From contig NZ_DASPSP010000018.1 in NCBI RefSeq assembly GCF_035623875.1, positions 8,244-72,243 on the forward strand: a stretch of DNA of 64,000 bases. Direction: 5' to 3'. Below the pieces are notes generated by a model. It was not told the origin of the DNA. It saw only the letters and a list, made by a program, of their open reading frames with translations, and did not search any database. A program made the translations under genes and the position numbers. Below are positions 1,877-27,714 of the stretch, in pieces. How positions within the stretch are numbered: the stretch's first letter is position 1; each line of letters begins with the position of its first letter. Origin of the DNA: Mycobacterium sp. Its GTDB lineage: Bacteria > Actinomycetota > Actinomycetes > Mycobacteriales > Mycobacteriaceae.

Positions 1877-3349
1877 TCAGCTCTCGATGGTGTAGCCCAT
1901 CGGCATCAACACGCTCTTCTGTTGGGTGAAGTGCTCGACGCCCTCCGGCCCGTTCTCCCGGCCGATGCCGGAGTTCTTGTAGCCGCCAAACGGACAACAC
2001 GGATCGAAGGCGTACCAGTTGATCGCGTATGTCCCGGTGCGGATCTTCTCCGAGATCTCGATACCTCGTGGCACATTGGTGGTCCACACGCTGCCGGCCA
2101 GGCCGTACACCGAATCGTTGGCGATCTTGATCGCATCTTCCTCGGTGTCGTAGGGGATGATGCTGAGCACCGGCCCGAAGATCTCCTCCTGGGCGATTGT
2201 CATCTTGTTGTCGACATCAGCGAACACGGTGGGCTGCACGAAGAAGCCGTTGTCCAGCCCTTCGGGACGGCCGCCGCCGCACACCAGCCGCGCGCCCTCC
2301 TCGACGCCCTTGGCGATGTAGCCCTCGACGCGGGCGCGCTGTTTCTCCGAAATCAGCGACCCGATCTGGGCGGCCGGGTCTGACGGCGTCCCGACTGGCA
2401 GCGCCTGCACGAAAGCGCTTACCGCGTCCACGATTTCGTCGTAGCGCGAGCGGGGTGCCAGTATTCGGGTCTGGGCCACGCAGGCCTGTCCGGTGTTCAT
2501 GATTCCGGAGAACACCAGCATGGGGATCGAGCCGGCCAGGTCGACGTCGTCGAGGAGGATGGCCGCCGATTTGCCGCCGAGTTCCAGGGTGCACGGCTTG
2601 AGTATCTCCGCCGCGCGGCGGCCGATCTCCTTGCCGACGCCCGAGCTGCCGGTGAAGGAGAAGACGTCGATGTCTCGATTGGACGTCAGCGCCTGGCCGG
2701 TCTCGACCCCGCCGGGTACTACCGACAGCACACCCTCTGGCAGGCCGGCCTCAGCGAACACCTCCGCCAAAGCATTTGTGCTCAACGGGGTTTCGGCGGC
2801 TGGCTTGAGCACCACCGTGCAGCCGGCCAGTAGCGCCGGACCCAGCTTGTTGATCGCGAGGAATAGCGGCACGTTCCACGCCACGATCGCGCTGACCACG
2901 CCGAGCGGCTCGCGACGGACGATGGTCTGCCCGTAGCCGCCGTTGCGGATCTCCTGCCACTTGACCTGGTCGACGGCGGGGCCGGCGAAAAAGTTCATCG
3001 CCCCGATCCCGCTCATCCACTGCATCGTCTCGACAGAGGTCGGTGGCTGGCCGGTCTCGAGGCCGAGCAGCTTGGTGAAGCCATCCTTGCGCTCCTCCAT
3101 CAGCTTGAGCGCGTTGGCGAGGACGGCCGCGCGGTCTTTCGGCGGCGTCGTGGGCCAGGGGCCGCTGTCGAATGCCGCGCGGGCCGCAGCGACTGCCGCG
3201 TCGACGTCGGCCGCGGCCGCCAGCGGTACCTTGCCGACGTACTCGCCGGTGGCCGGGCAGTGCACCTCGATGACTTCGGAGGTCGACGGCTCCGTCCACT
3301 TGCCGCCAATGAAAAGCTTGTCGTACTCCGTTTTAGCGCTGTCGCTCAT
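1877..3349 (-). CDS. Aldehyde dehydrogenase (Rv0223c-like)
   Basis: FTGSSGVG, LELGGKS, catalytic GQAC, EEIFGP motifs; start placed at MSDSAKTEY (3349). Confidence 0.92.
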   Translation of the reverse strand: MSDSAKTEYDKLFIGGKWTEPSTSEVIEVHCPATGEYVGKVPLAAAADVDAAVAAARAAFDSGPWPTTPPKDRAAVLANALKLMEERKDGFTKLLGLETGQPPTSVETMQWMSGIGAMNFFAGPAVDQVKWQEIRNGGYGQTIVRREPLGVVSAIVAWNVPLFLAINKLGPALLAGCTVVLKPAAETPLSTNALAEVFAEAGLPEGVLSVVPGGVETGQALTSNRDIDVFSFTGSSGVGKEIGRRAAEILKPCTLELGGKSAAILLDDVDLAGSIPMLVFSGIMNTGQACVAQTRILAPRSRYDEIVDAVSAFVQALPVGTPSDPAAQIGSLISEKQRARVEGYIAKGVEEGARLVCGGGRPEGLDNGFFVQPTVFADVDNKMTIAQEEIFGPVLSIIPYDTEEDAIKIANDSVYGLAGSVWTTNVPRGIEISEKIRTGTYAINWYAFDPCCPFGGYKNSGIGRENGPEGVEHFTQQKSVLMPMGYTIES

Positions 3350-3391
3350 ATCGGCCACCCTACCCAAGCCGAAGCAAAACGAGAACATGTT

Positions 3392-4162
3392 TCAGTATTG
3401 TGGCTGAAGGACCAGCACGAGATTGCTCACCAGGAACTCCCGTAGCACCGGCACCGACGTCAGCCACCATGCCCATCGAGGGTGGTAGCGGGGGAAAGCG
3501 GCGACCAAGGCGCCAGTGCTGGCCGCCCAATTCAGGCCGTCGGCCGCCGATATCGCGAACAACGACGATCCGTAATCGTTTTTCGGACGATGACCGTGTT
3601 TGCGGGTGTAGCGCGCCGCGGCGCGCGCCCCGCCGAGATAGTGCGTCAGGCCCATCTCGTGGCCGCCGAACGGGCCGAGCCAGACCGTGTAGGACAGCAC
3701 CGCGAGACCGCCTGGCTTGGTGACCCGCAGCATCTCGGCGCCGAGCCGCCAGGGCCGCGCTACGTGCTCGGCGACATTGGACGACAGGCAGATGTCCACC
3801 GAGTCATCGGCGAACGGCACCGCCATGCCCGAGGCGCGGACGAATGTGCCAGTTGCGGCTGCCAAAGACGGCCCGGCCGTGTGCATTTCGTTTGGATCGG
3901 GTTCCACGCCGATGTACCGAAGCCCGGCGTCGGTAAAGGCCGTCGCGAAGTATCCCGGCCCGCCACCGACGTCGAGCAGCGTGCGACCAGCCGGAGACTC
4001 GCCGTGGGCGGACCGCCAGAAGTCGCACACCATAACAGCGGTGTCGACCGCCAGCGCGTGGTAGAACCGGGCCGGATCAGGCTGCTCGTAGCGGAACTCT
4101 GACAGCAGTCGCACCGACCGGCGCAGGGTCGCTCGCTGGGCAAACACGTCGGTCACGGCCAC
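3392..4162 (-). CDS. Class I SAM-dependent methyltransferase (Rv0224c-like; MtrP in corynebacteria)
   Basis: LDVGGGPG motif I, LSSNVAEHV; position in the Rv0224c-Rv0228 cluster. Confidence 0.9.
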   Translation of the reverse strand: MAVTDVFAQRATLRRSVRLLSEFRYEQPDPARFYHALAVDTAVMVCDFWRSAHGESPAGRTLLDVGGGPGYFATAFTDAGLRYIGVEPDPNEMHTAGPSLAAATGTFVRASGMAVPFADDSVDICLSSNVAEHVARPWRLGAEMLRVTKPGGLAVLSYTVWLGPFGGHEMGLTHYLGGARAAARYTRKHGHRPKNDYGSSLFAISAADGLNWAASTGALVAAFPRYHPRWAWWLTSVPVLREFLVSNLVLVLQPQY

Positions 4163-4273
4163 CGGCCAACCCTACGGCCGAGCTGACTTCACGTTTGCGC
4201 CCGCCGGGCTGATTGCCGGACTCCTCAGCCCGCCGCTTTCGCGGCGCGCATCGTCGCCCGGCTAGGCTGACCC

Positions 4274-5431
4274 GTGATGTCTCGTCTGCGCTCGGTATTG
4301 CTGCTGTGCTGGCGCGATATCGGCCACCCGCAGGGCGGTGGCAGCGAAACCTATCTGCAGCGCATCGGCGCCCAGCTGGCCGCGTCCGGCGTCGCGGTCA
4401 CGTTGCGCACCGCCCGTTACCCCGGCGCGGCACGTCGGGAAGTCATCGACGGTGTGCGGATCAACCGTGCGGGCGGGCGGTACTCGGTATACGTCTGGGC
4501 GCTGTTGGCGATGGCGGCGTCCAGGCTCGGGCTGGGGCCGCTGGGGCGGGTCCGACCCGATGTGGTAATCGACACCCAGAACGGCTTGCCGTTTCTGGCG
4601 CGGCTGATCTATGGCCGGCGGGTCGCGGTGCTGGTGCACCACTGCCATCGCGAGCAGTGGCCGGTGGCCGGCTGGTTTTTCGGTCGGCTCGGCTGGTTTG
4701 TGGAGTCGCGGTTGTCGCCGAGGGCGCACCGCCGCAACCAGTACGTGACGGTGTCGTTGCCGTCGGCCCGCGACTTGGTCGGCCTGGGTGTTGCCAGTGA
4801 GCGAATCGCGTTGGTGCGCAACGGTCTCGACGAGGCACCCGAGGCGTCTCTGCGTGGACCACGGGCGGGTAACCCGCGCGCGTTGGTGTTGTCTCGGTTA
4901 GTGCCGCACAAGCAGATCGAGGACGCGTTGGCTGCGGTGGCGCTGCTGCGGCCATCGATACCGGGGCTGCATCTCGACATCGTCGGCGGCGGGTGGTGGT
5001 GGCGGCGCTTGGTCGACCACGCCGCACGCTTGGGGATCAGCGACGCGGTGACGTTTCACGGCCATGTCGATGACGTCACCAAACACCATGTCATGCAACG
5101 GTCTTGGGTGCACGTGTTGCCGTCGCGCAAAGAAGGCTGGGGTCTGGCGGTCATCGAGGCGGCCCAACACGCGGTGCCCACAATCGGCTACCGATCCTCC
5201 GGCGGGTTGGCCGACTCGATCATCGACGGGGTGACCGGGGTGCTGGTCGACAGCTGCGCCGAGTTGGTGAATCGGCTGCAGCAATTGCTGACTGATCCGG
5301 TGCTGCGTGATCAACTCGGCGTCAAGGCGCAGGCGCGCAGCGCCGAATTCTCTTGGCGGCAAAGCGCTGACGCGATGCGTACGGTGTTGGAGTCGGTGAT
5401 GGCCGGCGACCGTGTCAGCGGAGTAGTCTAA
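4274..5431 (+). CDS. GT4-family glycosyltransferase (Rv0225-like)
   Basis: HPQGGGSE N-terminal motif and PSRKEGWGLAVIEA (E-x7-E) motif. Confidence 0.92.
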   Translation: MMSRLRSVLLLCWRDIGHPQGGGSETYLQRIGAQLAASGVAVTLRTARYPGAARREVIDGVRINRAGGRYSVYVWALLAMAASRLGLGPLGRVRPDVVIDTQNGLPFLARLIYGRRVAVLVHHCHREQWPVAGWFFGRLGWFVESRLSPRAHRRNQYVTVSLPSARDLVGLGVASERIALVRNGLDEAPEASLRGPRAGNPRALVLSRLVPHKQIEDALAAVALLRPSIPGLHLDIVGGGWWWRRLVDHAARLGISDAVTFHGHVDDVTKHHVMQRSWVHVLPSRKEGWGLAVIEAAQHAVPTIGYRSSGGLADSIIDGVTGVLVDSCAELVNRLQQLLTDPVLRDQLGVKAQARSAEFSWRQSADAMRTVLESVMAGDRVSGVV

Positions 5432-5619
5432 CTTCGACCTTGTCTCAGTGCGCCCCGTTGTCGTGCTGCTCATCGCCGCCCTCGTCATCCCAGTGCGCCG
5501 ATTCTGGAAGCGGTGTGTTGGGCATAGCCCCTCGGGCAGATGCCTCGTAGCCGGGTTGCGCTTTGTGCTCATTCCGGCGTGGATCCAATCTGTTCGCTCG
5601 GATTACGGCTTCGGCGGCA

Positions 5620-7386
5620 TCAGGTATCTCTGTAGGGTCGCGGGCCCCGACGAACATGCTGCCGCCAGCCGGCTACCGCCGTCCCGATGGCCCCGCCGAT
5701 GAGCATCTCCAACCACGCCAAGTGCGCGATCGCCGCGAGCAGTCGACGGTCGGCGGGCACGCCTGCTGCCTTGCCGCCGACTCGATACAGCATTAGATCA
5801 CGCCCGCGATAGGTCACCGGTAGTCGCTCGAAAGTCCTTGCAGCCAAGCCCATATCGCCGGGGGTGCCCGTCTCGATCACCAGCCATCCCACGCCCGCCC
5901 GACGAAGTGCGACCGGATCGGCGCCCGCCAACAGCAGCCGCTGCACCCCGCGCGCCCGGTTTCCCTCACCGGGAACCGTCACACCCGAAATGATCAAGTC
6001 GCCGGTCATCAGCACGTCGGCGCGCACCCAGCGCGGCAGCGGATCCAGCACCGGCGCCGGCCCGGACCAGGCGAAGCGCCGCATGGTATCGGCCGGCAAC
6101 ACCGCGACCGCGTCGGGATCACGGTTGATCAAAGCCGCGACGGTTGCCCAGTCGGTCGGGTAATGCACCGGCTTAACCTTTCCCCCGACGCCCCACACTA
6201 AATCCGGAAGGGAGAGCAGCAGCGCGGCGCAGCACACGAGCGCGGGAACCACCGGCCCCAAACAACTTAGCCAGCGCCGCACCGTCAGGACTGTGCCTGC
6301 TCCCGCGAGTGCGTATCCGGGCAACGCCAGTGCCACCCACTTCTGCCCGTCGCGAAAGACGCCCAGGCCGGGCGCGGCTTCGACCATCGTGTGCAGCGTG
6401 GCCAGCCCCGGCCCGGTGGCCAGTGCGGCGGGTATCAGCACGGACACCGCTGCCAACACCACCAACGGCATCGCCGCCCGGCGGCGCACCACCGTCGGCA
6501 GCCCGGTGGCCACCACAACAAGCAGCACCGTTGCCGACACGACAGCGAAAAGTGTTGCCCGCGAGGCCGGTACGGCGTCGTCGTTCCAGATCCCGCCTAG
6601 GCTGGCCAAGCTGCCCAGCGTGCCCAGACCGGGCTCGGCACGGGCGGCGAACGCGGCAACGTCCGGGGTCTGCGTCCAGACGCCGTCCCCCGATGACAAG
6701 CCCAGTGCCGCGGCCGTCAACCACGGCAGTGCCGCCACCAGGGCCGCGCCCGACACGACGGCGGCACACATCCAGCGCGGCCTGGGCCCCCCCGGGCCCC
6801 CGACAGGCGCAGCGACGCAAACCAGTCCGACTACAGCCGCAAGGATCAACCCGGTCGGGGTCAGCCCGGCCAGCGCGATCCAGAACGCCAACCCGAAAAG
6901 CCGCGGCCAGACGGGCCGGTCCCGCGATCGTAGTGCCAACACATTCGTCGCCACCCAGGGCAGGCAACCGTAGCCGAGCAGCAGGCTCCAGTGCCCCTGG
7001 AGCAGCCGTTCACCGACATATGGATTCCAGATCGCCAGCGTGATCGCGACAAACTGGCCGCCGGCACCGGCTTCTGGCAACACCTGTATGGCCAACCGGG
7101 CGGCGCCCCAGCCCGCCAGCCACAGTCCCGCGACGAGCAACGTCTTGACCACGATGCCGCCATCGACGCAGTGCGACGCCAACGCGACGGCGAAATCCTG
7201 CGGCGTGGCCCGCGGGGCCGCGACCAGCCCGAGCGCGCTGTCGGATAGATACGACCGCGGCGTGGACACTGCATCGCGCAACAGCAAATACCCGGGGCTG
7301 ATCAGCGGCGCAACCACCAGCAGCGCCAACGCCAGCGCATACCCCGGACGAGACCACTGCAGAACCCAGTGGGGTACCGGCCTCAC
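5620..7386 (-). CDS. Polytopic membrane protein (Rv0226c-like; MmpA in corynebacteria)
   Basis: Multiple hydrophobic segments, LLLRDAVSTPR, WNPYVGERLLQGHWSLL, FRDGQKW; synteny. Confidence 0.88.
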   Translation of the reverse strand: MRPVPHWVLQWSRPGYALALALLVVAPLISPGYLLLRDAVSTPRSYLSDSALGLVAAPRATPQDFAVALASHCVDGGIVVKTLLVAGLWLAGWGAARLAIQVLPEAGAGGQFVAITLAIWNPYVGERLLQGHWSLLLGYGCLPWVATNVLALRSRDRPVWPRLFGLAFWIALAGLTPTGLILAAVVGLVCVAAPVGGPGGPRPRWMCAAVVSGAALVAALPWLTAAALGLSSGDGVWTQTPDVAAFAARAEPGLGTLGSLASLGGIWNDDAVPASRATLFAVVSATVLLVVVATGLPTVVRRRAAMPLVVLAAVSVLIPAALATGPGLATLHTMVEAAPGLGVFRDGQKWVALALPGYALAGAGTVLTVRRWLSCLGPVVPALVCCAALLLSLPDLVWGVGGKVKPVHYPTDWATVAALINRDPDAVAVLPADTMRRFAWSGPAPVLDPLPRWVRADVLMTGDLIISGVTVPGEGNRARGVQRLLLAGADPVALRRAGVGWLVIETGTPGDMGLAARTFERLPVTYRGRDLMLYRVGGKAAGVPADRRLLAAIAHLAWLEMLIGGAIGTAVAGWRQHVRRGPRPYRDT

Positions 7387-19412: not shown

Positions 19413-20852
19413 TTAATCGGTCGCCGCTTTCGCCAGTGAAGTGGGCCGCAGGTAGTTGCCTTCCAGCGTGCGATGCCACCACGCGTGATCATGTCGCAAT
19501 TCGGCCGCAGTGGTGAAGCGGTATCGGTAGAGCTGAGCGCGTACGTATCGTGGCGGGGACCCCGGGAAGGGATTGTGGCGGAGCAAGCGCAGCGTCGCCA
19601 CATCATTCTGCAAGAGCCGCAACACAAATGGTCGAAGCCAGGGGTAGGCGTAGTGCGGCGAGATGGCGGCAAACCACATCAGCCAGTCCAGTCGCAGGTG
19701 ATACGGCGCCCATTGCGCCGGCACGCGGCGCACCGCCCCGGGCTTGCCTTTGAACTCGTATTCCTTCCACACCGTCTGATTGGTGACCTCCGGCTCGTCG
19801 GTGCCTTCGATCACTACCTCCCGGCGGGTTCGGCCTATGGTGCCGAACGCGCCATACGTGTTGATCAGGTGGTACGCGTTGAACGACATGTTCATCCGCT
19901 GCCGCCGGGAGATCATGTTGCGCACCGGATACCAGGTCAGCATCACGGTCAGCACCGTGAACCCGATCACCAGGCCGGCGAACCACGGTGGAGCTGCGAC
20001 CAGCGCCGGCTGTTTGGGAATGGGCAGCACTGCCGCCGCCGATGACGCGTCGATCACGCTGCAGCCCAGGAGAATCGTCAACCAGTTCAACCAGGCGAAG
20101 TTACCCGAGATCACCAGCCACAGCTGGGTGATGACGACGATCGCTCCGGCGATGCTGGCCACCGGCTGCGGGGCGAACAATCCAAACGGGACAATCAGCT
20201 GCGCGAAATGGTTCCCAACGACTTCTACCCGATGCAGGGGCTTGGGTAGGTGATGGAAGAACCAGCTCAGCGGCCCTGGCATCGGTTGAGTTTCGTGGTG
20301 GTAGTAAAGGCAGGTCAGATCGCGCCAGCACGAGTCACCGCGGAGCTTGATCAGTCCCGCACCGAACTCGAGCCGGAATAGCAGCAAGCGCGCCAGCCAC
20401 ATGGCCAGCAGCGGCGGCGCGACCCGGTCATTGCCGAGGAAGATCGCCAGGAAACCGGTCTCGAGCAGTAGCGACTCCCAGCCGAACGAGTACCACGTCT
20501 GGCCGACATTGACGATCGACAGGTAAAGCAACCAAAGCAGCAGCCACACCAATACCGCAGCCCACAGCGGCAATGCGCCGGCCAAGCCCAACGCCATAGC
20601 TGCCGATAGCAGCGCACCCAACCAGGCGACAGCCGCAAAGAACCGATCGGAATAGTGGACGTGGAAGATGCTCGGCGTTTGGCGGAAGGATTGTCGGGCC
20701 AGATAGCGCGGCACCGGCAGCAGCCCGTGTTCCCCGATCAGCGCCCGAAACTGTCGCGCGGCCGCAACGAACGCGAAGACATAAACGACCGCGATGCCAC
20801 GCTCCAGTATCAGCCGGCCCAACCAATACTCGGGTGCGCTAAACCATCCCAT
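19413..20852 (-). CDS. Lipase maturation factor family membrane protein (Rv0235c-like)
   Basis: FGWESLLLETGFL, HHETQPMP, YEFKGKPG, RLDWLMWFA motifs. Confidence 0.92.
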   Translation of the reverse strand: MGWFSAPEYWLGRLILERGIAVVYVFAFVAAARQFRALIGEHGLLPVPRYLARQSFRQTPSIFHVHYSDRFFAAVAWLGALLSAAMALGLAGALPLWAAVLVWLLLWLLYLSIVNVGQTWYSFGWESLLLETGFLAIFLGNDRVAPPLLAMWLARLLLFRLEFGAGLIKLRGDSCWRDLTCLYYHHETQPMPGPLSWFFHHLPKPLHRVEVVGNHFAQLIVPFGLFAPQPVASIAGAIVVITQLWLVISGNFAWLNWLTILLGCSVIDASSAAAVLPIPKQPALVAAPPWFAGLVIGFTVLTVMLTWYPVRNMISRRQRMNMSFNAYHLINTYGAFGTIGRTRREVVIEGTDEPEVTNQTVWKEYEFKGKPGAVRRVPAQWAPYHLRLDWLMWFAAISPHYAYPWLRPFVLRLLQNDVATLRLLRHNPFPGSPPRYVRAQLYRYRFTTAAELRHDHAWWHRTLEGNYLRPTSLAKAATD

Positions 20853-20928: not shown

Positions 20929-21561
20929 TCAGGAGTCGGCTTTGAGGATCACCGGAACTTCGATGTCGTTTCGGACAAGCTCACCTGGAAAGCACGGGGA
21001 CACGCCGGTAATCGTCGGTGGATATCCGTTGTGGTTAGCCGCGACGATTTGGAGACTGTACCCATCCGGCGCATAACCGAATCGGTTCGGTTTCCGGAAC
21101 CCGTCGCGTTCACGCACGTACCAGCCCCAGCCCTGCCAGATATCACCGGCCTTGGCGATCATCGCGTCCAGATCGGTTTCGGGAGGAAAGACCGCGTCAC
21201 GGATGTCGGAGAATTCGTTCGGCGGGACACCGGTCGGCTCGTCATTGCACGGTGTATTTCCCGAGCCCGCGTAGCGGGAGCGATCGAAGACCGTTCCCGT
21301 CGGTAAGGCTTGGAGGGTCTTCTTCAGATACCCGATCACGGTGTCTTGGGCTTGTTGCTGGCTGGTTGGGACGACGGGTTGCACCTTCCAACCCGGCGGC
21401 GGTGGCGGGCCAGATGCCATGGGAAGTTCTCCAATGGTCGTTGCTCCCGACGGTGTCGGAGGTCCCGGCGGGTTGCGTTGGCCGCAAGCGACGAGCGCGA
21501 TGACCAGGATGGTGCCGGTCAAAACAGTTCGCGCTAGGGCTTGGGAGGTGGTGGCATTCAT
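20929..21561 (-). CDS. Lipoprotein (LppA/LppJ-like), putative immunity protein
   Basis: GAGG RBS, ATG at 21561, signal peptide ending in lipobox LVAC (Cys26), Pro-rich linker, two further Cys including C-terminal SPC. Confidence 0.8.
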   Translation of the reverse strand: MNATTSQALARTVLTGTILVIALVACGQRNPPGPPTPSGATTIGELPMASGPPPPPGWKVQPVVPTSQQQAQDTVIGYLKKTLQALPTGTVFDRSRYAGSGNTPCNDEPTGVPPNEFSDIRDAVFPPETDLDAMIAKAGDIWQGWGWYVRERDGFRKPNRFGYAPDGYSLQIVAANHNGYPPTITGVSPCFPGELVRNDIEVPVILKADS

Positions 21562-21572
21562 CTGGTCCTCGC

Positions 21573-23216
21573 TCAGCTCGGCCCGACGATCTGCGGAGGC
21601 GCAACCCCGGCGATGACGGCGCCCATGTTGGCCAGCGCGATGTTGTGTTGATCCCAGTAGCTGCTGTGGGCGTCGACGCTCGGCAGTCCCACCGGGCCGG
21701 TGGGTATCGGGCCGGCCGCCAAGCCACGGGCGCCGAACTTCGGTGCTGTCGGATCGGGTCCCAGTGTCCATTCGGCGACCACGCCGCTGATGCCGATGAT
21801 GTCGTCAGCCGCCCGCATCGCATACACATCGGCGCCCGGCTCCAGGCTGAGCCCGTCGACGCGGTCCACCAACATTCCGGGGCTGCCAACCGCGATGACG
21901 TTGTCAGCATCGAGGTGATGCCCACCTGAAGCGGCCGCGCCGACCAGTGTCGAGCCGTAGCTGTGGCCGATTACGGTGTCGATCGACGGTGGCCCGACAT
22001 GTGAGGCGCGCAGCCCGCTCTCGAATGCGTCCAACCCGTCGGCGCCCGCGCGAGCGGGATCAGGGAAGGCCGCGCGGCTCAAGTTCATTGGACGGTCATA
22101 ACCCATCCACGTCGTAATCGACACATCCTTGGGGCCAAGAGTCTTGTCTGCGGCACGCGCCGTGTTGTACATCGCCACTGCTCTTGCGTCGCTGAACGAC
22201 AGACGGGCCAGGTCCTGACCGGTGCCGGGAACGAAAATGCCATTGCGTTTGGCGAAGTCCGGGTTCCCGATAGCCACGGCGCCATGGCCCGTGTCATCGA
22301 GGTAGCCCAAGTAGCGATCCACCCCATCCGCGCGGTTCAAGTCGGCTCGTACCGCCTGATAGCCCGCCAATTTGCGTCGGGCCGCCGCCAGCTGTGATTG
22401 CAACGCATACAGCGCGCCGTCGTCGACGTTGTGGCCGGCCGCCATCTCGTCAATGCTGTGCTGCATCCGGTCGACGGCGGCTTCGGTCTGCCCCTCGAGC
22501 TCGTGTAGGTGCAGCCGGTTGTAGTGGTCCTTCCCCAGGTGATCCGTTGGGTCCCACGGCATTCCGGCGTGGTTGCCGACGTTGTGGTTTTGACCGTATA
22601 GCCAGTCCTTTTCCTCCGGGGTGAGCTGATTCCACAACTCGTTGAACTTCTTCGGGTCATCGGGCAGCGGCTCGGACAGCGCGTCCTGGATGTGTGGCCG
22701 ATTGTCATGCGGTTCCGTCGGAATGGGCACGTCTCCGTCGGCCATATCGATCGCTGTCGCCAGCTCCGCGTCGACGGCGTTGGCCTCGGCCAGAATCGCG
22801 TCTAGCCATGGCTGCAGCTGCATTTCGGCGATGAGGGCTGCTGACGGCGGACCGTTGAACGTCGCACTCGGCACCACCTTGTCGGTCAGCGGATCGATCG
22901 TCATGTGCAGCTCGGCGGCATCGTGCCGCAGCGAGCGCAATTCGGACTGCACGTGCTCGATGCCGTCGGCGGCTTTGCCGGCCGCGCGGGCGACCGCCAG
23001 TGACTCGTTACCGTGCGCGTCGAGGTCTTCGCGGATCGCGGCATTGGTGTGCCATCTGGCCTCGGCAGTTGCGCCCTCCCAGGTGTCGAACACCGCCAAC
23101 GAGCTCAGCTGACGCGACGCTTCCAAGGTGGCCTGCCCGCGCGCCCCGGCCGCGTGGAACACCTCGCGCACCGCCTCGGCGCTCCATCGATCAATATCGA
23201 CCACCGGCAGCGTCAC
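21573..23216 (-). CDS. WXG100-like N-terminus fused to an alpha/beta hydrolase (DUF1023/Abhydrolase_8)
   Basis: Helical N-terminus with WEG at residues 46-48; VPGTG, GHSYG nucleophile elbow, DDII, AHSSYW triad motifs; no signal peptide. Confidence 0.85.
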   Translation of the reverse strand: MTLPVVDIDRWSAEAVREVFHAAGARGQATLEASRQLSSLAVFDTWEGATAEARWHTNAAIREDLDAHGNESLAVARAAGKAADGIEHVQSELRSLRHDAAELHMTIDPLTDKVVPSATFNGPPSAALIAEMQLQPWLDAILAEANAVDAELATAIDMADGDVPIPTEPHDNRPHIQDALSEPLPDDPKKFNELWNQLTPEEKDWLYGQNHNVGNHAGMPWDPTDHLGKDHYNRLHLHELEGQTEAAVDRMQHSIDEMAAGHNVDDGALYALQSQLAAARRKLAGYQAVRADLNRADGVDRYLGYLDDTGHGAVAIGNPDFAKRNGIFVPGTGQDLARLSFSDARAVAMYNTARAADKTLGPKDVSITTWMGYDRPMNLSRAAFPDPARAGADGLDAFESGLRASHVGPPSIDTVIGHSYGSTLVGAAASGGHHLDADNVIAVGSPGMLVDRVDGLSLEPGADVYAMRAADDIIGISGVVAEWTLGPDPTAPKFGARGLAAGPIPTGPVGLPSVDAHSSYWDQHNIALANMGAVIAGVAPPQIVGPS

Positions 23217-23273
23217 AAGTTATGCCGTAACAGCATTGAAGATTGGCCACAAGTCACCGGTTGTCCGAGTTGC

Positions 23274-26200
23274 TTATCGGACGGATTTGTGCCACGACGT
23301 CGCCGAGGCCACCAGCGCCGCAAGTGAAATCAGCGCCAACAGTTGCAGGCCGGCGGAATGCCCGGCGTAGCCGTCGACCGATCGCCACGGATGCCGGGAC
23401 AGTGCCGCGCCGGCCAGAATCAGTCCGCCGGCGCTGCACCCCACGGTGATCACGTCCCGCCGTCGGAGACGGTTAGGCAAAGCCCATTGCAGGCCGAGCG
23501 CGGCGCCGAACACCAGAACGCCTACCACTCCGGCGATCACCGCCCCGGCCGTCAGCACAGCGACAGCCGCCCACGGTCCAGGTGCCCACGGGCGCGCCGC
23601 CGGGCCATCGCGGGGCGGACGTCGCTGCGGCCACCACGCCATCAGTGCCAACAGCGGCAGCAGCGCCAGCCCGCCGGCCAGGCCGGCGCGATAAAGCGAG
23701 TTGGGCGCAAAGGTGAGCGTGACGGTGCCCGAGGTTCCCGCCGGCACCACCCAGCCCTGCTGCCAGCCGTTGACGGCAACCGGTGTGAGCCGAGTCCCGG
23801 CTCTGGTGTGTGCGACCCAACCAGGGTTGATGCTCTCCGGAACGACCAACACCCGCGACACCGCCGCCTGCGGTATGCGGACCTCGCGGCGGGCCGGACC
23901 CCATGCCCCAGTGGGAGCGGACATCGCGGATGTGGCTGTGGCAGTGGGCGATTCAGCTGCCAGCGGCCCGGACAACTGCGCGCCGTCGACGATGAATTGT
24001 GGCCCGGGACTTATCAATAGCTCCTGCTGACCGGTCGGCAACTCGATCGGCTGACGGTCGCATGCTCGGGCGGTCACCGGCGCGCCGTCCAGCAGCGCAC
24101 CGACCGTGGTCTGGATCGCGGTGTGCACAAACCGGCCGGCGATGGCGATTACCGGCCCGTGAGCGCAGTCGACGCTGACCTCGCGAGCCCGGTTGCGCGC
24201 GGCATCGGCGGGGGCAACCGGTTTGCCGTCGGCGCCGAGCACCGCGATCTCGGCCAGTCCCGGCGGTTTCAGCTGATCGAAGCCCAGCGCGGTGCGGTCG
24301 ATAACGTCATCCCAGTCCAGCAGGCTGACCGTGACAGTATCGGTGACTCGGGGTTGCAGCTGCAGGCTTTGTGGGCCGTTCAATCGGCGGACCTGCGGAC
24401 CGTCCCCGAGGTCGATGGCGGCCATGGTCGGGTGTGCGGGCACTGACGACCGGGCGGGAACCAGCCGTAGCCCGGTCACCTCGGTCGGCTGAGGCAGGGT
24501 GAGGGTCAGCGTCGGGGGCGTCTTGTGCTGCACCACCCGTTGTGGTGCTGTCCACGCGGTGGCCGGGTCACCATCGGTGGCGGCATAAGCGGAGGCGAGG
24601 ACGTCAACCAGATCGGAGTCACCGCGGGCCCGGGTGGTGTCCGGTTCGGCAATCAGATCGGCCAGTTTGGGTCCCGGCCGCGCACGCACCCACACCGTTG
24701 GTAGCACCGAAACCGGTTGGGGCACAGTCAGTGTCCGGCTGAACGTCGCCGGTGTTTCCGGTGTCAGCGCCATCGAGGCCGCACACTGCATGGTCGCCGG
24801 GCCCCCTGGCCCCTCAGCGCAGCCCGGCCTGCCGAGCAATTCCGAGCCGAGGTCCCACCGCGCGACGGCCTCAGTCGGCGGGGGACCGGGAACCAGCACG
24901 GTGTGCCGCAGTTCGACCGGGTGCGCAAACCCGGACGCGTCGTACTGGGTGATCGCCAAGTCGGTGATCGCAAACTGCACCCCGGCCGAACCGTCGTCGG
25001 TGCCGACCGCGGTGATCCGCACCCACGGGGTTTCGCCGTACGGCAGTGCCGCGGTAACCGGTTTGCCCGCCTCGTCGAACCTCAGCGTCGTGGTGCCGGT
25101 GGCGGTGGCCACCTCGATCCTGCGGACCTGGGCGCCGACGGCGGTCGCGCTCGGTGTGATCGTGATGACGCTGTTGGTCACCGGACGGTCGAAGTCCACC
25201 TGAAGCCATTGACCGACGGCGGACTGCAGCGCGTTGGACACCCACGCGGTCGCCGAGTCGCCGTCAATCGCGGCGGCGGGCGAGGTCGCCGGGGCGACGT
25301 CGGGCAGCGCAGTGGCGTCCGACGACGAACTGGACACCGCGAGCCGGCCGCCGGTCCAGGCGCCGTACACGGTGTCGGCCCCCGGGGTCGGGTAGTCGGG
25401 CACCCGGTTGAAGGTGCGTCGGGCGTCGCCGACCGCCCGGATCGCCGACGAGTGGTCATCAACCCGGCCGTAATCGGTTTCCCGGGCCAGCGGGGTATCG
25501 GTGACGGTGACCCCTGCCCCAGCGGGCACCGGCAGACCGGCGCGTCGGGCGTCGGCGGTCATCAGCACCGGACCCAGCGGAGGCTGACCCGCCAGGCGAC
25601 GGCGTTCGTCGAGGCGCAACAGCACTTCCGGCCCGCCGTCGACGCGGGCCAGTCGGTCGGTGTCGGTCAGGTAGGGGGCGCCGTGTTCGCCGTTGGCGGT
25701 GGCGTCTGTGGCGACGCGGTAGATCTCCACGGCGGGGTATCGGGGTCGCAATCCGCTGTCGGTGACGAACCCCGACACCGGGCCGGGCCCGACCGGCGCG
25801 CCAAACTGGGCGATTTTCGCCAGGCGCGGCGACCCCGCGATCGCCCGGTGCACGAGAATCGGGCGCGCCGAACGCGACGTGTCGGGGTCCAGGTCATTGC
25901 GCACGACGAGATACGAAATACCTTGGCGGGCAAGCGTATCAGCCAAGCCCCCGGAAGGTCTGCCGGCGGCGAAGAGGCGTTGCACCGAATCCAGCGCTCG
26001 GATGGTTTGCGGCGGGGTCAAGGGGATCGAGTCGCGCACACCCCACGGGCTGTCGCCGAGAACCTGTAGCGGTTCGTCGTGGCTGGTCCCCCACTGCTGG
26101 GTGGCAAACGGCGCGCCGGGAACCACCAGCACTCGGCCGCCAGTCGGTGAACCGGTGTTGTGTTCGGAGAGCCAGTCCGCGGTCTCATGCCAATACCGGG

Positions 26201-27506
26201 GTATCGCGCTGAACGTGCCGGGCGGGGCGATCCGACCGGTCCACGCCAGCGAAGTGGCGGCCAACAGGGCGGTCAAGATCACGATCGCGGCCGCGACCCG
26301 CTTGTCGCGCTCAGGATGAGCAAACGCGTGGATCCAGTCCGCTTTCGGCGCGGTCCCCGGTAGCGGGATCCGGCCCAGCACCTGAGCCAGGCCCAGGACT
26401 ATCGGGATCCGGATCACCGACTCCAGCTTGTGCACGTTGCGCAGCGGCGCTCCGCCGGCGTCCAGGAAAGCCTGCGCGTGATGCGCCAGCGGCGAGCCGA
26501 GCCCGCCGCTGTAGCCGGCGGCCAGCAGTACCACCCCGACGAGCAGCATCGTCACCAGCCGACCGCGCGCCGGCGAATCCCGCATGCTCAAACCGGCCAA
26601 CCCGGCCGCCGCCACCAGGCAGGTGGCCAGGATAGCGACCGATCCGGTGACCAAAGGGGCACCCGCGGTCGCGTCGGGCGCCACGAACGGGGTCCAGCTG
26701 TCGGTGCCGCGCAGCACTTCGACCAGCGACGACCATTGCGTGGTCACGCCGGACGACTCGATGAAGTCCAGAAACGGCGGGCTGATCCGGGCCATCAAGA
26801 TCAGCGCCGCCAGCCACCACGTCATCGCCAATGCCAGGGCCAGCAACCACCACCCGGTGTAACGCCACCACCGGCGGTTGGGTCGGTGGCAGGCCCACCA
26901 GATCACGGCGGGCAGGCAGCCGGCCAACGTCGCGATCGCGTTGACCGCTCCCATCAGCGCCACGGCCACCCCGGCCTGCCCGGCGAGCCGGCGCAGCGAC
27001 CGCTCGGCGTCGCCGCGCAGCGCCACAATGGTGGGCAGCAGCACCCACGGCGCGAGCATGATCGGCAAGGTTTCCGACGAGATCGACCCCAAGGTGGTCA
27101 ATACCCGAGGCGAAAGCGCGAACGCCGCCGCCGCGACCACCCGCGATGTCGGGCTGCCGATACGCAGCGCCTCAGCGACCCGCAGCAACCCCCAGAAGCC
27201 GACGGTCAGCAGCAGTGCCCACCACAGCCGCTGGGTCACCCAGCCGGGTAGTCCCAACAGGTGACCGGCCAGGAAGAACGCCCCGTGCGGAAACAAGTAG
27301 CCGTAGGCCTGGTTCTGGGCTTGCCCGAAGGGCAGTTCGCTGTTCCACAAATTGGTCGCCCGGGCCAGGAAACGCAGCGGGTTGGCGGTGAGGTCGAGCT
27401 TGGTGTCGGGGGAGATCTGCCCGGGCGACGCAGCGAAGCTCAACATCAGCGCGACCGTCGCGACCAACCACAACCAGCGTCGCGACAGTGGCGCTACGGC
27501 AGACAT
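23274..27506 (-). CDS. aftD: Arabinofuranosyltransferase AftD (Rv0236c)
   Basis: 1410 aa; PDTKLDL, QNQAYGYLFP GT-C motifs, large periplasmic carbohydrate-binding region, C-terminal TMs. Confidence 0.95.
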   Translation of the reverse strand: MSAVAPLSRRWLWLVATVALMLSFAASPGQISPDTKLDLTANPLRFLARATNLWNSELPFGQAQNQAYGYLFPHGAFFLAGHLLGLPGWVTQRLWWALLLTVGFWGLLRVAEALRIGSPTSRVVAAAAFALSPRVLTTLGSISSETLPIMLAPWVLLPTIVALRGDAERSLRRLAGQAGVAVALMGAVNAIATLAGCLPAVIWWACHRPNRRWWRYTGWWLLALALAMTWWLAALILMARISPPFLDFIESSGVTTQWSSLVEVLRGTDSWTPFVAPDATAGAPLVTGSVAILATCLVAAAGLAGLSMRDSPARGRLVTMLLVGVVLLAAGYSGGLGSPLAHHAQAFLDAGGAPLRNVHKLESVIRIPIVLGLAQVLGRIPLPGTAPKADWIHAFAHPERDKRVAAAIVILTALLAATSLAWTGRIAPPGTFSAIPRYWHETADWLSEHNTGSPTGGRVLVVPGAPFATQQWGTSHDEPLQVLGDSPWGVRDSIPLTPPQTIRALDSVQRLFAAGRPSGGLADTLARQGISYLVVRNDLDPDTSRSARPILVHRAIAGSPRLAKIAQFGAPVGPGPVSGFVTDSGLRPRYPAVEIYRVATDATANGEHGAPYLTDTDRLARVDGGPEVLLRLDERRRLAGQPPLGPVLMTADARRAGLPVPAGAGVTVTDTPLARETDYGRVDDHSSAIRAVGDARRTFNRVPDYPTPGADTVYGAWTGGRLAVSSSSSDATALPDVAPATSPAAAIDGDSATAWVSNALQSAVGQWLQVDFDRPVTNSVITITPSATAVGAQVRRIEVATATGTTTLRFDEAGKPVTAALPYGETPWVRITAVGTDDGSAGVQFAITDLAITQYDASGFAHPVELRHTVLVPGPPPTEAVARWDLGSELLGRPGCAEGPGGPATMQCAASMALTPETPATFSRTLTVPQPVSVLPTVWVRARPGPKLADLIAEPDTTRARGDSDLVDVLASAYAATDGDPATAWTAPQRVVQHKTPPTLTLTLPQPTEVTGLRLVPARSSVPAHPTMAAIDLGDGPQVRRLNGPQSLQLQPRVTDTVTVSLLDWDDVIDRTALGFDQLKPPGLAEIAVLGADGKPVAPADAARNRAREVSVDCAHGPVIAIAGRFVHTAIQTTVGALLDGAPVTARACDRQPIELPTGQQELLISPGPQFIVDGAQLSGPLAAESPTATATSAMSAPTGAWGPARREVRIPQAAVSRVLVVPESINPGWVAHTRAGTRLTPVAVNGWQQGWVVPAGTSGTVTLTFAPNSLYRAGLAGGLALLPLLALMAWWPQRRPPRDGPAARPWAPGPWAAVAVLTAGAVIAGVVGVLVFGAALGLQWALPNRLRRRDVITVGCSAGGLILAGAALSRHPWRSVDGYAGHSAGLQLLALISLAALVASATSWHKSVR

Positions 27507-27540: not shown

Positions 27541-27714
27541 CTAACTGCGGTTGCCGTACTCGACCCGGTTGAGCACCGACGACTGCGGGTCGCCGCCGGG
27601 AAGCGGTGGCTTGGTGTCCTGCTGGATCATCAACGTGATCCCGAAGATCGCGGCTGCGCCCAGCAACAGACCGACCACGACGCTGGCGGCGGCGGGCGCA
27701 ACGAAGCGGTTCAT
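27541..27714 (-). CDS. Small secreted/membrane protein DUF2613 (Rv0236A-like), 57 aa
   Basis: Manual translation: MNRFVAPAAASVVVGLLLGAAAIFGITLMIQQDTKPPLPGGDPQSSVLNRVEYGNRS. Confidence 0.88.
   Translation of the reverse strand: MNRFVAPAAASVVVGLLLGAAAIFGITLMIQQDTKPPLPGGDPQSSVLNRVEYGNRS

Follow-up and report, generated by a model that had tools for sequence, protein, structure and literature searches.

A hydrolase–lipoprotein gene pair at the aftD site of a peat-soil Mycobacterium as a probable relative of type VII-associated polymorphic toxins

Introduction

What is the role of a two-gene unit, encoding a hydrolase with a helical N-terminus and a lipoprotein, that lies between an LMF1-family gene and aftD on the minus strand of a peat-soil Mycobacterium? 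An initial annotation, made from the letters of the DNA, read it as a type VII-secreted effector with its immunity protein, and the comparative sequence evidence assembled here largely supports that interpretation. We consider it probable that gene 1 belongs, as a chromosomal member, to the ESX (type VII)-associated polymorphic toxins of mycobacteria and that gene 2 encodes its lipoprotein immunity. The locus belongs to a kind of system that has already been published, as PEST cassettes in 2023 (PMC10654092) and as Eat loci with lipoprotein immunity in 2026 (PMC13444075), and the idea is therefore no longer new. What is unusual here is the missing WXG100 partner, together with relatives at the aftD site that are mostly devoid of the partner, the lipoprotein or both, with the hydrolase intact. 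Experimental proof of mycobacterial type VII interbacterial toxins dates from 2026 and concerns one payload, an arabinanase (PMC13444075); no alpha/beta-hydrolase payload is known to have been characterized.

The locus and its genes

The following arrangement was found in the window, by which we mean the whole 64-kb stretch of DNA analyzed.

19413..20852, minus strand: LMF1-family (Rv0235c-like) membrane protein (PF06762, E 1e-64; PF25179, E 2e-52)
20929..21561, minus strand: gene 2 (LPP), open reading frame with ATG start, 210 aa; predicted lipoprotein and candidate cognate inhibitor
21562..21572, minus strand: spacer between gene 1 and gene 2, 11 bp, gcGAGGAccag; GAGGA is Shine-Dalgarno-like and the putative ribosome-binding site of gene 2
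21573..23216, minus strand: gene 1 (HYD), open reading frame with GTG start, 547 aa; three-part protein
23217..23273, minus strand: intergenic region between aftD and HYD, 57 bp; relatives encode a WXG100 partner of ~100 aa here, which is absent
23274..27506, minus strand: arabinofuranosyltransferase AftD (PF11847, E 2e-278)

Both open reading frames of the annotated unit were recovered at their places, 11 bp apart; relatives mostly show a 4-bp overlap between the two genes. The flanking genes Rv0235c and aftD are presumably adjacent in H37Rv. Sequence searches returned 718 homologues of gene 1 at E<=1e-3 and 208 homologues of gene 2, and given these hundreds of homologues and a pairwise dN/dS of 0.10-0.39 over both genes, neither is a chance open reading frame. 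For gene 2, whose frame stays open to 21771, chance occurrence and a start farther upstream were both rejected, the latter because the extension would overlap gene 1 and because homologues begin at the lipoprotein signal peptide. Scans of the locus for promoters and terminators were uninformative. The DNA runs containing the region are peat and soil metagenomes; no RNA runs containing it, and no expression data, were found.

The N-terminal carrier domain

The first of the three parts of gene 1 contains the following features.

22707..23216, minus strand: N-terminal trafficking domain (predicted), aa 1-~170; helix, WxG loop, long helix, beta-hairpin and helix in the AF2 model
23073..23081, minus strand: W46-E47-G48 (WxG) in the loop of the helical hairpin; W46 nearly invariant, G48 invariant

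In the AF2 model, with pLDDT mostly 70-93 over this domain, the WxG loop sits between a helix at 13-39 and a helix at 49-102, and a further helix spans 124-159. The N-terminus had been called WXG100-like, and this holds for its shape, a conserved helical hairpin with WxG, but not for family membership: the N-terminal 298 aa gave no match to Pfam WXG100 (PF06013), PE or PPE even at E <= 10, and nothing meaningful in Pfam and NCBIfam as a whole. Among its homologues, 5 of 70 match the WXG100 HMM (best E 3.7e-6) and weak EspB/PPE signals also occur. Between the N-domain profile and that of the WXG100 partner family, hhalign gave no significant alignment (probability 0.3%), and a marginal EspB match among PDB sequences (E 0.018), mixed with haemoglobin noise, is consistent with such a relationship only and is not evidence for it. 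Judging from the model, the N-terminus may well work like a WXG/PPE-type carrier, although it is not a demonstrable member of the WXG100 family.

A library-wide search found 373 proteins that share aa 1-296. Beyond the hydrolase, the N-domain is fused to TNT, RNAse_A_bac, Endonuclea_NS_2, Gln_amidase, Tox-REase-5, GH-E, Ntox44, CdiA_C_tRNase and Cutinase, with 35-77% identity to the N-domain of the window and up to 72-77% among the fusions to TNT, RNAse_A_bac, Endonuclea_NS_2, Tox-REase-5, GH-E and Gln_amidase. The converse swap, in which the hydrolase stands on other N-domains such as Hydro_N_hd, is also seen. The domain further matches a 'polymorphic toxin protein with WXG100 motif' of M. 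abscessus prophages in tblastn (E 4e-6 to 3e-4) and has a BFVD Foldseek match over 172 columns (E 2.4e-5). Residues 1-~170 form an exchangeable module, a helical hairpin that resembles PPE and EspB and has WxG in its loop, and the comparisons support its assignment as a putative T7SS-type trafficking module that is common to bona fide polymorphic-toxin domains. With a dN/dS of 0.15-0.30 the N-domain is not decaying, which implies continued interaction with something.

The hydrolase payload

The remainder of gene 1 contains the following features.

22317..22694, minus strand: helical 'linker' subdomain, aa ~175-300; highly conserved, travels with the hydrolase and not with the N-domain
21795..22292, minus strand: Abhydrolase_8 match (PF06259, formerly DUF1023), aa 309-474; E 7.8e-26, 91.3 bits against a cut-off of 20.5
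21960..21962, minus strand: Ser419, predicted nucleophile (GHSYG); never substituted in orthologues or in any complete copy of the 80 loci
21801..21803, minus strand: Asp472, predicted triad acid; nearly invariant
21666..21668, minus strand: His517, predicted triad base (AHSSYW); nearly invariant

We predict that the payload comprises aa ~185-547, that is the conserved helical subdomain together with an Abhydrolase_8 Ser-Asp-His hydrolase. Hydrolases that have a different N-terminal domain (Hydro_N_hd type), and those of Streptomyces, still contain the linker, whose divergence tracks that of the hydrolase (r 0.77) more than that of the N-domain (r 0.55). All three regions of gene 1 (N-domain, linker and hydrolase) show a dN/dS of 0.14-0.36. 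The annotated Ser-Asp-His hydrolase was confirmed by the Pfam match above the gathering score and by an intact triad: across 25 orthologues, and across all complete hydrolase copies of the 80 related loci, G417-H-S419-Y-G421, D472 and H517 show no or almost no variation. Its lack of a Sec or Tat signal was likewise borne out, as the N-terminus, read directly, has neither a hydrophobic nor a twin-arginine signal.

The term 'lipase' for gene 1 is an assumption, as all that appears is a generic alpha/beta-hydrolase fold. In the AF2 model the hydrolase core has a pLDDT below 50 for aa 375-520, and a core so poorly modelled from a shallow alignment of close relatives cannot decide the substrate class. 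Foldseek of the full-length model against the PDB gave weak matches to HSL-family and generic esterases (E >= 0.02, TM <= 0.16), and some homologues match Pfam Cutinase. A PDB sequence search with the full hydrolase returned a lone 17-bit match to a transcription elongation factor-like protein, which was rejected as spurious. No functional study was found in full text for DUF1023, Abhydrolase_8, Rv2079, Rv2542, Rv2797c, Rv2078 or Rv2798c; the mentions that were found are tables of SNPs and a single list of esterase predictions.

The locus and its approximately 80 relatives define the anatomy of a class, with a carrier at aa 1-170, a payload at aa ~185-547, the predicted catalytic residues Ser419/Asp472/His517, and candidate inhibitors from two alternative lipoprotein families. 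Two large groups of 'conserved hypothetical' mycobacterial proteins, Abhydrolase_8/DUF1023 and the LppA-like lipoproteins, thereby receive a testable function, and knowing the envelope substrate of the hydrolase could point to a weak spot among the bonds of the mycobacterial cell wall.

WXG100 partners and cassette layout in relatives

A gene of ~100 aa lies directly upstream of the hydrolase in 23 related loci. Of these partners, 16 were compared with Pfam WXG100, and each matched at E <= 1 (3.8e-12 at best); one that was scored individually clears the curated cut-off with 29.1 against 27.3 bits. After helix 2, the majority have YxxxD/E or FxxxE; reading the F-for-Y exchange of some partners as decay was rejected in general, since FxxxE is a subfamily trait that is also present in complete cassettes. 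The window differs in this respect, as had been annotated: the 57 bp upstream of gene 1 leave no room for a partner, and tblastn found no WXG100-partner homologue in the 64 kb. A reading of the first residues only of its 54 called genes brought no ESX gene to notice.

Most relatives of the hydrolase outside the aftD site are ordered as WXG100, hydrolase and then a lipoprotein in the slot of an immunity gene, and the hydrolase–lipoprotein unit is also found on plasmids and in Streptomyces. Sister cassettes with the same N-domain follow the same order, namely WXG100, N-domain-RNaseA and CdiI_2; WXG100, N-domain-TNT and a 211-aa gene; and WXG100, N-domain-Tox-REase-5 and Imm52. The partner is upstream in three of four sister-toxin loci, and a clear toxin, the Gln_amidase of L081, is encoded in a partner-less sister cassette.

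These layouts bear on whether gene 1 is exported at all. An ordinary intracellular esterase with a relic N-terminus, beside a functionally unrelated lipoprotein gene, would fit the lack of both a partner gene and a Sec/Tat signal, and NCBI labels the homologues as plain 'alpha/beta hydrolase'. We regard this as very unlikely, given that the N-domain shows no decay, that a clear toxin can likewise be without a partner, and that hydrolase and lipoprotein are tightly linked, with translational coupling, in about 45 loci including those of Streptomyces.

The lipoprotein

Gene 2 contains the following features.

21484..21495, minus strand: lipobox L23-V24-A25-C26; C26 nearly invariant in 30 homologues
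20932..21378, minus strand: folded mature domain of LPP, aa ~62-210; AF2 pLDDT about 90; conserved C105 and C190

The N-terminus of gene 2, MNATTSQALARTVLTGTILVIALVA-C26, fits the lipobox pattern [LVI][ASTVI][GAS]C, and its annotation as a lipoprotein stands on a signal peptide that ends in LVAC and is conserved in 30 homologues. A Pro-rich tether precedes the folded domain, and the gene shows a dN/dS of 0.10-0.39. LPP falls into no family of Pfam (none at E <= 10) or NCBIfam, and Foldseek of the confident model against the PDB gave no significant neighbour. Alignment with LppA-family (PF16708) sequences by hhalign was not significant (probability 7%, E 0.005), and LPP is, as far as profile comparison can tell, not detectably an LppA-family member.

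In about 45 loci, whose contexts are unrelated, the gene directly downstream of the hydrolase encodes a lipoprotein, and it belongs either to the LPP family or to Pfam LppA (E 1e-41 to 1e-46). The LppA alternative occurs in L039, L063 and L066, and in L064/L065 by clustering; according to the Pfam text, the LppA family is confined to pathogenic Mycobacterium. Two tandem lipoprotein copies were found by tblastn in L060. The divergence of the lipoprotein tracks that of the hydrolase domain (r 0.73; partial 0.70 given the N-domain) and not that of the N-domain (r 0.39; partial 0.24), a co-divergence that could partly reflect physical linkage. In L063 and L066 there is also an orphan cassette, consisting of a C-terminal fragment of the hydrolase and a second, co-diverged lipoprotein.

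The annotated immunity-type position of the lipoprotein is corroborated by these linked loci and by CdiI_2 and Imm52, which fill the same slot in sister cassettes. A role of LPP in export, maturation or targeting, for example as a receptor in the envelope or a chaperone, placing the enzyme and not inhibiting it, is in our estimation most unlikely. Such a role would agree with the co-divergence with hydrolase and linker, with a novel fold unlike known immunity proteins, and with the loss of the lipoprotein in many lineages that keep the enzyme; it is at odds with the recognized immunity families in that slot, with the orphan pairs of fragment and lipoprotein, which are typical of toxin–immunity systems, and with the characterized analogues EatI and TilA, both of which are inhibitory lipoproteins.

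Comparison with known systems

Eat loci consist of TapA1/A2, EatA and the lipoprotein EatI and depend on ESX-4 (Benedict et al., 2026, Nat Commun, PMC13444075). In a survey of such loci, alpha/beta hydrolases are among the commonest predicted payloads, and envelope-targeting toxins are accompanied by lipoprotein immunities (PMC13444075). The present family resembles them in the helical partner gene(s) upstream in relatives, a helical N-terminal carrier of ~180 aa, an enzymatic payload predicted to act on the envelope, and a lipoprotein encoded directly downstream, which is inhibitory in EatI and a candidate inhibitor in LPP. It differs in having an Abhydrolase_8 hydrolase with a helical subdomain where EatA has a GH183 arabinanase, and one partner gene in relatives, none in the window, where Eat loci have two (TapA1/A2); LPP is likened to EatI, and gene 1 to EatA, by layout and not by demonstrated homology.

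PEST cassettes of M. abscessus prophages (PEST1/2 type) are toxic without their immunity gene (mSystems, 2023, PMC10654092) and are composed of a WXG100 gene, a polymorphic toxin built from a ~173-aa WXG domain, a linker and TOX, and an immunity gene (PMC10654092). The three-gene layout in relatives, the swapping of domains by recombination, and the weak tblastn and BFVD matches to prophage toxins are points of likeness. Identity to these toxins is only 25-32%. In contrast to the prophage-borne PEST, the window copy is chromosomal, at a conserved core-genome site of environmental (peat) mycobacteria, has a hydrolase payload with a lipoprotein in the immunity slot, and is missing the WXG100 gene.

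Lipase–immunity pairs are also known from the T6SS as Tle–Tli. PE/PPE-fused lipases such as LipY are exported by ESX-5 and are not known to be antibacterial; LipY acts on host lipid and is not known to have an immunity gene, and CpnT combines EsxE/F with TNT on a double-WXG N-domain of ~300 aa (PEST3-like) with two Esx genes. Like LipY and CpnT, gene 1 joins an N-terminal helical T7SS carrier, in its case a putative one, to a C-terminal enzyme, and TNT also occurs on N-domains of the window type; unlike LipY, it adjoins a lipoprotein gene, and its N-domain has no PE or PPE match in Pfam.

The initial annotation also pointed to pairs in M. tuberculosis, which we take to be Rv2542-lppA/lppB, Rv2079-lppJ and Rv2797c-lppV. 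The parallel holds only at the level of families, in that an Abhydrolase_8 gene followed by a Pfam LppA lipoprotein does exist: the hydrolase family is the same (PF06259), L063-L066 have this order with PF16708, and the tandem lipoproteins of L060 resemble lppA/lppB. It does not extend to the window LPP, a different family that has no Pfam entry and a low LppA probability.

In Staphylococcus aureus, the T7SSb phospholipase toxin TslA is paired with the inhibitory lipoprotein TilA (Garrett et al., 2023, PMC10730906). The outline is alike, with an alpha/beta-hydrolase, a lipoprotein partner and small helical partners for type VII export, functions that are inferred for the present family; the lipase of TslA is N-terminal whereas the hydrolase here is C-terminal, and phospholipase activity is established for TslA alone.

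Proposed mode of action

In complete cassettes, the carrier module would pair with the small WXG100 protein encoded upstream, which bears the YxxxD/E export motif, and the two may form a composite signal that is recognized by an ESX system. The payload would then act outside the cytoplasm, possibly on an ester-linked component of the cell envelope, and membrane-anchored LPP would bind and block the hydrolase in the envelope of the producer, in parallel to EatI–EatA and TilA–TslA. The window copy is incomplete, as it has no WXG100 partner gene. For it to be exported, a gene elsewhere in the genome would have to supply the partner; another possibility is that it no longer serves as a weapon.

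The aftD/LMF1 site across relatives

The gene at the aftD site is a syntenic, vertically inherited orthologue across the clade, with 67-98% identity. Among 31 related aftD-site loci, neither partner nor lipoprotein is present in 20, the partner alone in four and the lipoprotein alone in seven, to which the window copy is added; the lipoprotein is thus absent at 24 of the 31, and both accessory genes occur together at none. All complete hydrolases at this site keep GHSYG, Asp and His, with a dN/dS of 0.14-0.36. A toxin that is retained while its immunity is lost is atypical, and the frequent absence of the lipoprotein beside an intact hydrolase speaks against an immunity gene that is strictly required in cis.

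This pattern raises the possibility that the aftD/LMF1-site copy, derived from a T7SS toxin cassette, now serves its producer as a domesticated envelope enzyme, for example in remodelling or scavenging ester-linked lipid of the envelope or the environment, with the lipoprotein as a dispensable regulator or anchor in place of an immunity protein. PE/PPE-fused lipases of the LipY kind offer a parallel for ESX export that does not serve antibacterial attack. The single core-genome site beside cell-wall genes, the vertical inheritance, the intact active site, the purifying selection on all three regions where lipoprotein and partner are lost, and the failure of any aftD-site locus to keep both accessory genes all favour it. 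We nevertheless think domestication rather unlikely, as the same unit behaves like a conflict system elsewhere, being accompanied by a WXG100 partner at numerous unrelated sites, carried on plasmids and found in orphan cassettes, and the constraint on the N-domain implies an interaction. A second hydrolase–lipoprotein pair is moreover present elsewhere in at least four genomes whose aftD-site copy is without a lipoprotein, so that immunity in trans is possible.

A still more doubtful proposal, which we put forward as speculation, gives the domesticated toxin a new housekeeping role in the envelope and carries a corollary for the lipoproteins. A clade of mycobacteria from soil and peat would have fixed an ancestral WXG100–hydrolase–lipoprotein cassette in its core genome, after which the partner, the immunity gene or both would have been lost lineage by lineage, with hydrolase and carrier kept under purifying selection; the new role might be tied to the adjacent homologue of the LMF1-family 'lipase maturation factor'. 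If this were true, Abhydrolase_8 enzymes throughout Actinomycetota, Streptomyces among them, would have LppA-type and LPP-type lipoproteins as their immunity or regulator proteins. The retention pattern at the aftD site offers a natural setting in which to ask if toxins of this kind can be repurposed or if partner and immunity functions can be supplied in trans.

Organization of the hydrolase–lipoprotein locus

The initial annotation had placed a two-gene unit with an 11-bp spacer beside aftD, and this arrangement was confirmed within the following four consecutive genes.

23274-27506, - strand, aftD, first of the four genes
21573-23216, - strand, gene 1 (hydrolase, HYD), GTG start, 547 aa
20929-21561, - strand, gene 2 (lipoprotein, LPP), 210 aa
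19413-20852, - strand, LMF1-family membrane protein (PF06762 and PF25179), last of the four genes

Gene 1 is separated from aftD by 57 bp and gene 2 from the LMF1-family gene by 76 bp, and GAGGA is present within the 11-bp spacer between genes 1 and 2. Among named organisms, gene 1 is most similar to relatives in Ca. M. methanotrophicum (82%) and M. fragae (74%). The source of the window is an uncultured peat Mycobacterium, and the sequencing runs that contain it are peat and soil metagenomes.

The predicted Ser-Asp-His hydrolase was borne out by a Pfam Abhydrolase_8 match (PF06259, formerly DUF1023; aa 309-474, E 7.8e-26) and by the catalytic residues Ser419 (within GHSYG), Asp472 and His517. 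This triad is kept in 25 orthologues and in all complete copies among 80 related hydrolase loci, which were obtained by scanning one genome per species, with genes called by a GC3-based caller and clustered by BLAST (individual loci on other contigs are designated L0xx). The helical WxG N-terminus was likewise recovered: W46-x-G48 is conserved, and neither Sec nor Tat features are present in the gene 1 N-terminus. In the AlphaFold2 model (mean pLDDT 66; good for aa 1-370, poor for aa 375-520) the WxG occupies the loop of a helix-loop-helix, joining helix 13-39 to a long helix 49-102, which is followed by a beta-hairpin, helix 124-159, a confident helical subdomain (aa 174-293) and then the hydrolase. 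A structural search with this model, in which the hydrolase core is poorly modelled, returned only weak esterase matches.

Gene 2 encodes a lipoprotein, as had been proposed; its signal peptide terminates in the lipobox LVA-C26 and is followed by a proline-rich tether. Its folded domain is modelled with a pLDDT of about 90 by AlphaFold2 and carries two cysteines conserved among homologues; a structural search gave no PDB neighbour for this fold. The family is without a Pfam entry and is not demonstrably LppA. The GC3 of the lipoprotein gene is 0.68, against 0.80 for the hydrolase and 0.79-0.84 for the flanking genes, and lipoprotein genes are consistently lower in GC3 than their hydrolase neighbours in L063, L066, L060 and L039 as well, a difference that might stem from exchange at a higher rate or from poorer codon adaptation. 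A small ORF of high GC3 (27541-27714, - strand, 57 aa) with a hydrophobic N-terminus, located between aftD and an LpqI-like gene, is kept in most related loci.

An exchangeable carrier domain

When aa 1-296 of gene 1 were searched against 1.8 billion representative proteins, 373 relatives were recovered, many of which match only aa 1 to about 170, with up to 72-77% identity, and diverge completely beyond. Behind this N-domain, Pfam identifies TNT, bacterial RNase A (CdiA-CT), Endonuclea_NS_2, Tox-REase-5, GH-E, Ntox44, CdiA_C_tRNase, glutamine deamidase, cutinase and Abhydrolase_8 C-termini. We inspected the contig context of four non-hydrolase toxins carrying the N-domain. In three of these sister cassettes a WXG100 gene precedes the toxin, and the RNase A, TNT and Tox-REase-5 fusions are followed by CdiI_2, a 211-aa gene and Imm52, respectively. 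The fourth (L081, 4001-6012), a glutamine deamidase (Gln_amidase) fusion followed by a 96-aa gene, has no WXG100 gene upstream, so that partner-less cassettes are not unique to the window. This layout, in which the carrier is constant, the toxin varies and a matching immunity gene lies downstream, is that of a standard polymorphic toxin system.

Conversely, the linker and hydrolase payload is also found behind other N-terminal helical domains, such as Pfam Hydro_N_hd, and occurs too in Streptomyces, Amycolatopsis and Kitasatospora. The N-terminus of gene 1 belongs to a polymorphic-toxin family, in which it forms an exchangeable module with a predicted trafficking role. The Hydro_N_hd fusions (PF22905; E 1e-84 in L059) comprise L059, L060, L070-L077 and related loci, and in these copies W-x-H replaces W-x-G at the aligned position; L060 carries two lipoprotein copies in tandem (tblastn). 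One further N-domain relative (P0442, 357 aa), 75% identical over the N-terminus, is named a hypothetical protein at NCBI and assigned there to M. tuberculosis variant microti OV254; this attribution may be doubtful, as the longest of the contigs given for its cluster measures 5.79 Mb.

WXG100 partners in related loci

A gene of about 100 aa lies directly upstream of the hydrolase in 23 of the 80 related loci. Sixteen of these genes were scanned and all gave a Pfam WXG100 match at E <= 1, the best being 3.8e-12; the single one shown individually exceeds the curated cut-off (29.1 against 27.3 bits). The YxxxD/E motif is a general ESX export signal of T7SS substrates; it is found just after the second helix in most partners, with FxxxE instead in one subfamily. 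As the WxG is supplied by the N-domain of the hydrolase, partner and hydrolase together resemble PE/PPE or EsxB/EsxA, a pairing that has also been proposed for the PEST1/2 systems (PMC10654092).

On a plasmid of Ca. Mycobacterium methanotrophicum (L086, NZ_CP097321, 3662-4399), a 111-aa WXG100 partner (GWVG ... FSAMD) precedes a carrier domain cut down to its first ~133 aa, which share 74% identity with the window. This remnant lies beside IS630 and another transposase and therefore looks like a decayed cassette.

Linkage and co-divergence of the lipoprotein

A homologue of gene 2 is found directly downstream of the hydrolase in about 45 loci of unrelated contexts, including one Mycolicibacterium plasmid, and the two genes mostly overlap by 4 bp. 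In L063-L066 the downstream lipoprotein belongs to another family, Pfam LppA, an assignment based on scans of three copies (L039, L063 and L066; E 1e-41 to 1e-46). In L039 (Mycolicibacterium psychrotolerans plasmid, 3079-6277) the WXG100 and hydrolase genes are followed by an LPP-type and then, in tandem, an LppA-type lipoprotein, which places both candidate immunity families behind one toxin.

Two of the LppA-type loci, L063 (8435-9309) and L066 (8338-9566), additionally contain a displaced piece of the hydrolase C-terminus, behind which lies a further, diverged LppA-family lipoprotein. In L063 this fragment has 101 aa and shares 89% identity with the full-length hydrolase, and the two lipoproteins share 75%; in L066 it has 215 aa, retains GHSYGS and shares 63% identity with its full-length counterpart, and the lipoproteins share 45%. 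Orphan cassettes of this sort are a hallmark of toxin-immunity loci. When 40 pairs were compared, the divergence of the lipoprotein tracked that of the hydrolase domain (r 0.73; partial correlation 0.70 after allowing for the N-domain) and much more weakly that of the carrier domain (r 0.39; partial 0.24). Physical linkage may contribute to this co-divergence.

The three-gene layout extends beyond mycobacteria. A plasmid of Streptomyces sp. NBC_00060 (L085, NZ_CP108254, 2404-5317) encodes a 146-aa protein, a 607-aa GHSYG hydrolase with helical N-terminus and linker, and a 185-aa lipoprotein with LLLTGC and two cysteines.

Comparison with published systems

The PEST cassettes of M. abscessus prophages, described by Hatfull's group, combine a WXG100 gene, a polymorphic toxin and an immunity gene, and toxicity was demonstrated when the immunity gene was left out (PMC10654092). 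The N-domain of the window gives weak tblastn matches to PEST prophage genes annotated as "polymorphic toxin protein with WXG100 motif" and one significant BFVD structural match over 172 columns. Benedict et al. (2026, PMC13444075) showed that EatA, which combines a helical N-terminus with a GH183 payload and has Tap partners encoded alongside, is a toxin that acts between mycobacteria, depends on ESX-4 and is blocked by the lipoprotein EatI. According to the same study, alpha/beta hydrolases belong to the most frequently predicted payloads, and lipoprotein immunities co-occur with envelope-targeting toxins (PMC13444075). TslA/TilA of S. aureus is a T7SSb functional analogue of the window pair. 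The pair is an uncharacterised addition to this already published kind of system, from which it differs in that the adjacent partner gene, a defining feature, is absent.

In the mechanism proposed here, carrier and WXG100 protein would together form an ESX signal, the payload would act as an esterase in the envelope, and the lipoprotein, held at the membrane by its proline-rich linker, would bind and inhibit the payload within the producer. The domain architecture, modularity, triad conservation, lipoprotein signal and cassette synteny in relatives are directly established; toxicity, inhibition, ESX dependence and substrate are hypotheses. The initial annotation is confirmed in its observation, in all details open to checking, and its reading as a T7SS hydrolase-lipoprotein pair is supported, with qualifications. 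For the hydrolase of the window, "lipase" is an assumption.

The aftD/LMF1 site

As had been noted, no WXG100 partner is encoded in the 57 bp upstream of gene 1, nor was one found elsewhere in the 64-kb window. No ESX gene was recognised from the first residues of its called genes, the part of each that was inspected. What remains most interesting is the evolutionary pattern at this site, which also provides a functional hypothesis for Abhydrolase_8 and LppA-like proteins. Among the 31 related loci with an aftD and/or LMF1 flank, the lipoprotein is present in seven (plus the window) and the partner in four; no locus carries the two together, and 20 carry neither. The catalytic residues are nevertheless kept in all complete hydrolase copies (L026 is cut by a contig end, and L033 and L034 are split matches), and pairwise dN/dS values of 0.14-0.36 are alike for carrier, linker and hydrolase, including the lineages devoid of accessory genes. 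This pattern is opposite to the usual decay, in which immunity outlives the toxin.

Two readings can be offered. Partner and immunity may be supplied in trans, and at least four genomes whose copy at this site lacks the lipoprotein contain another hydrolase-lipoprotein pair, the C-domains of which are 34-68% identical. Alternatively, the hydrolase at this site may be a domesticated enzyme.

The LMF1-family gene (19413-20852, - strand), which directly follows the pair, is a bacterial homologue of the eukaryotic lipase maturation factor LMF1. Hydrolase cassettes at other sites have no LMF1 neighbour; in many related loci the hydrolase directly abuts the LMF1-family gene.
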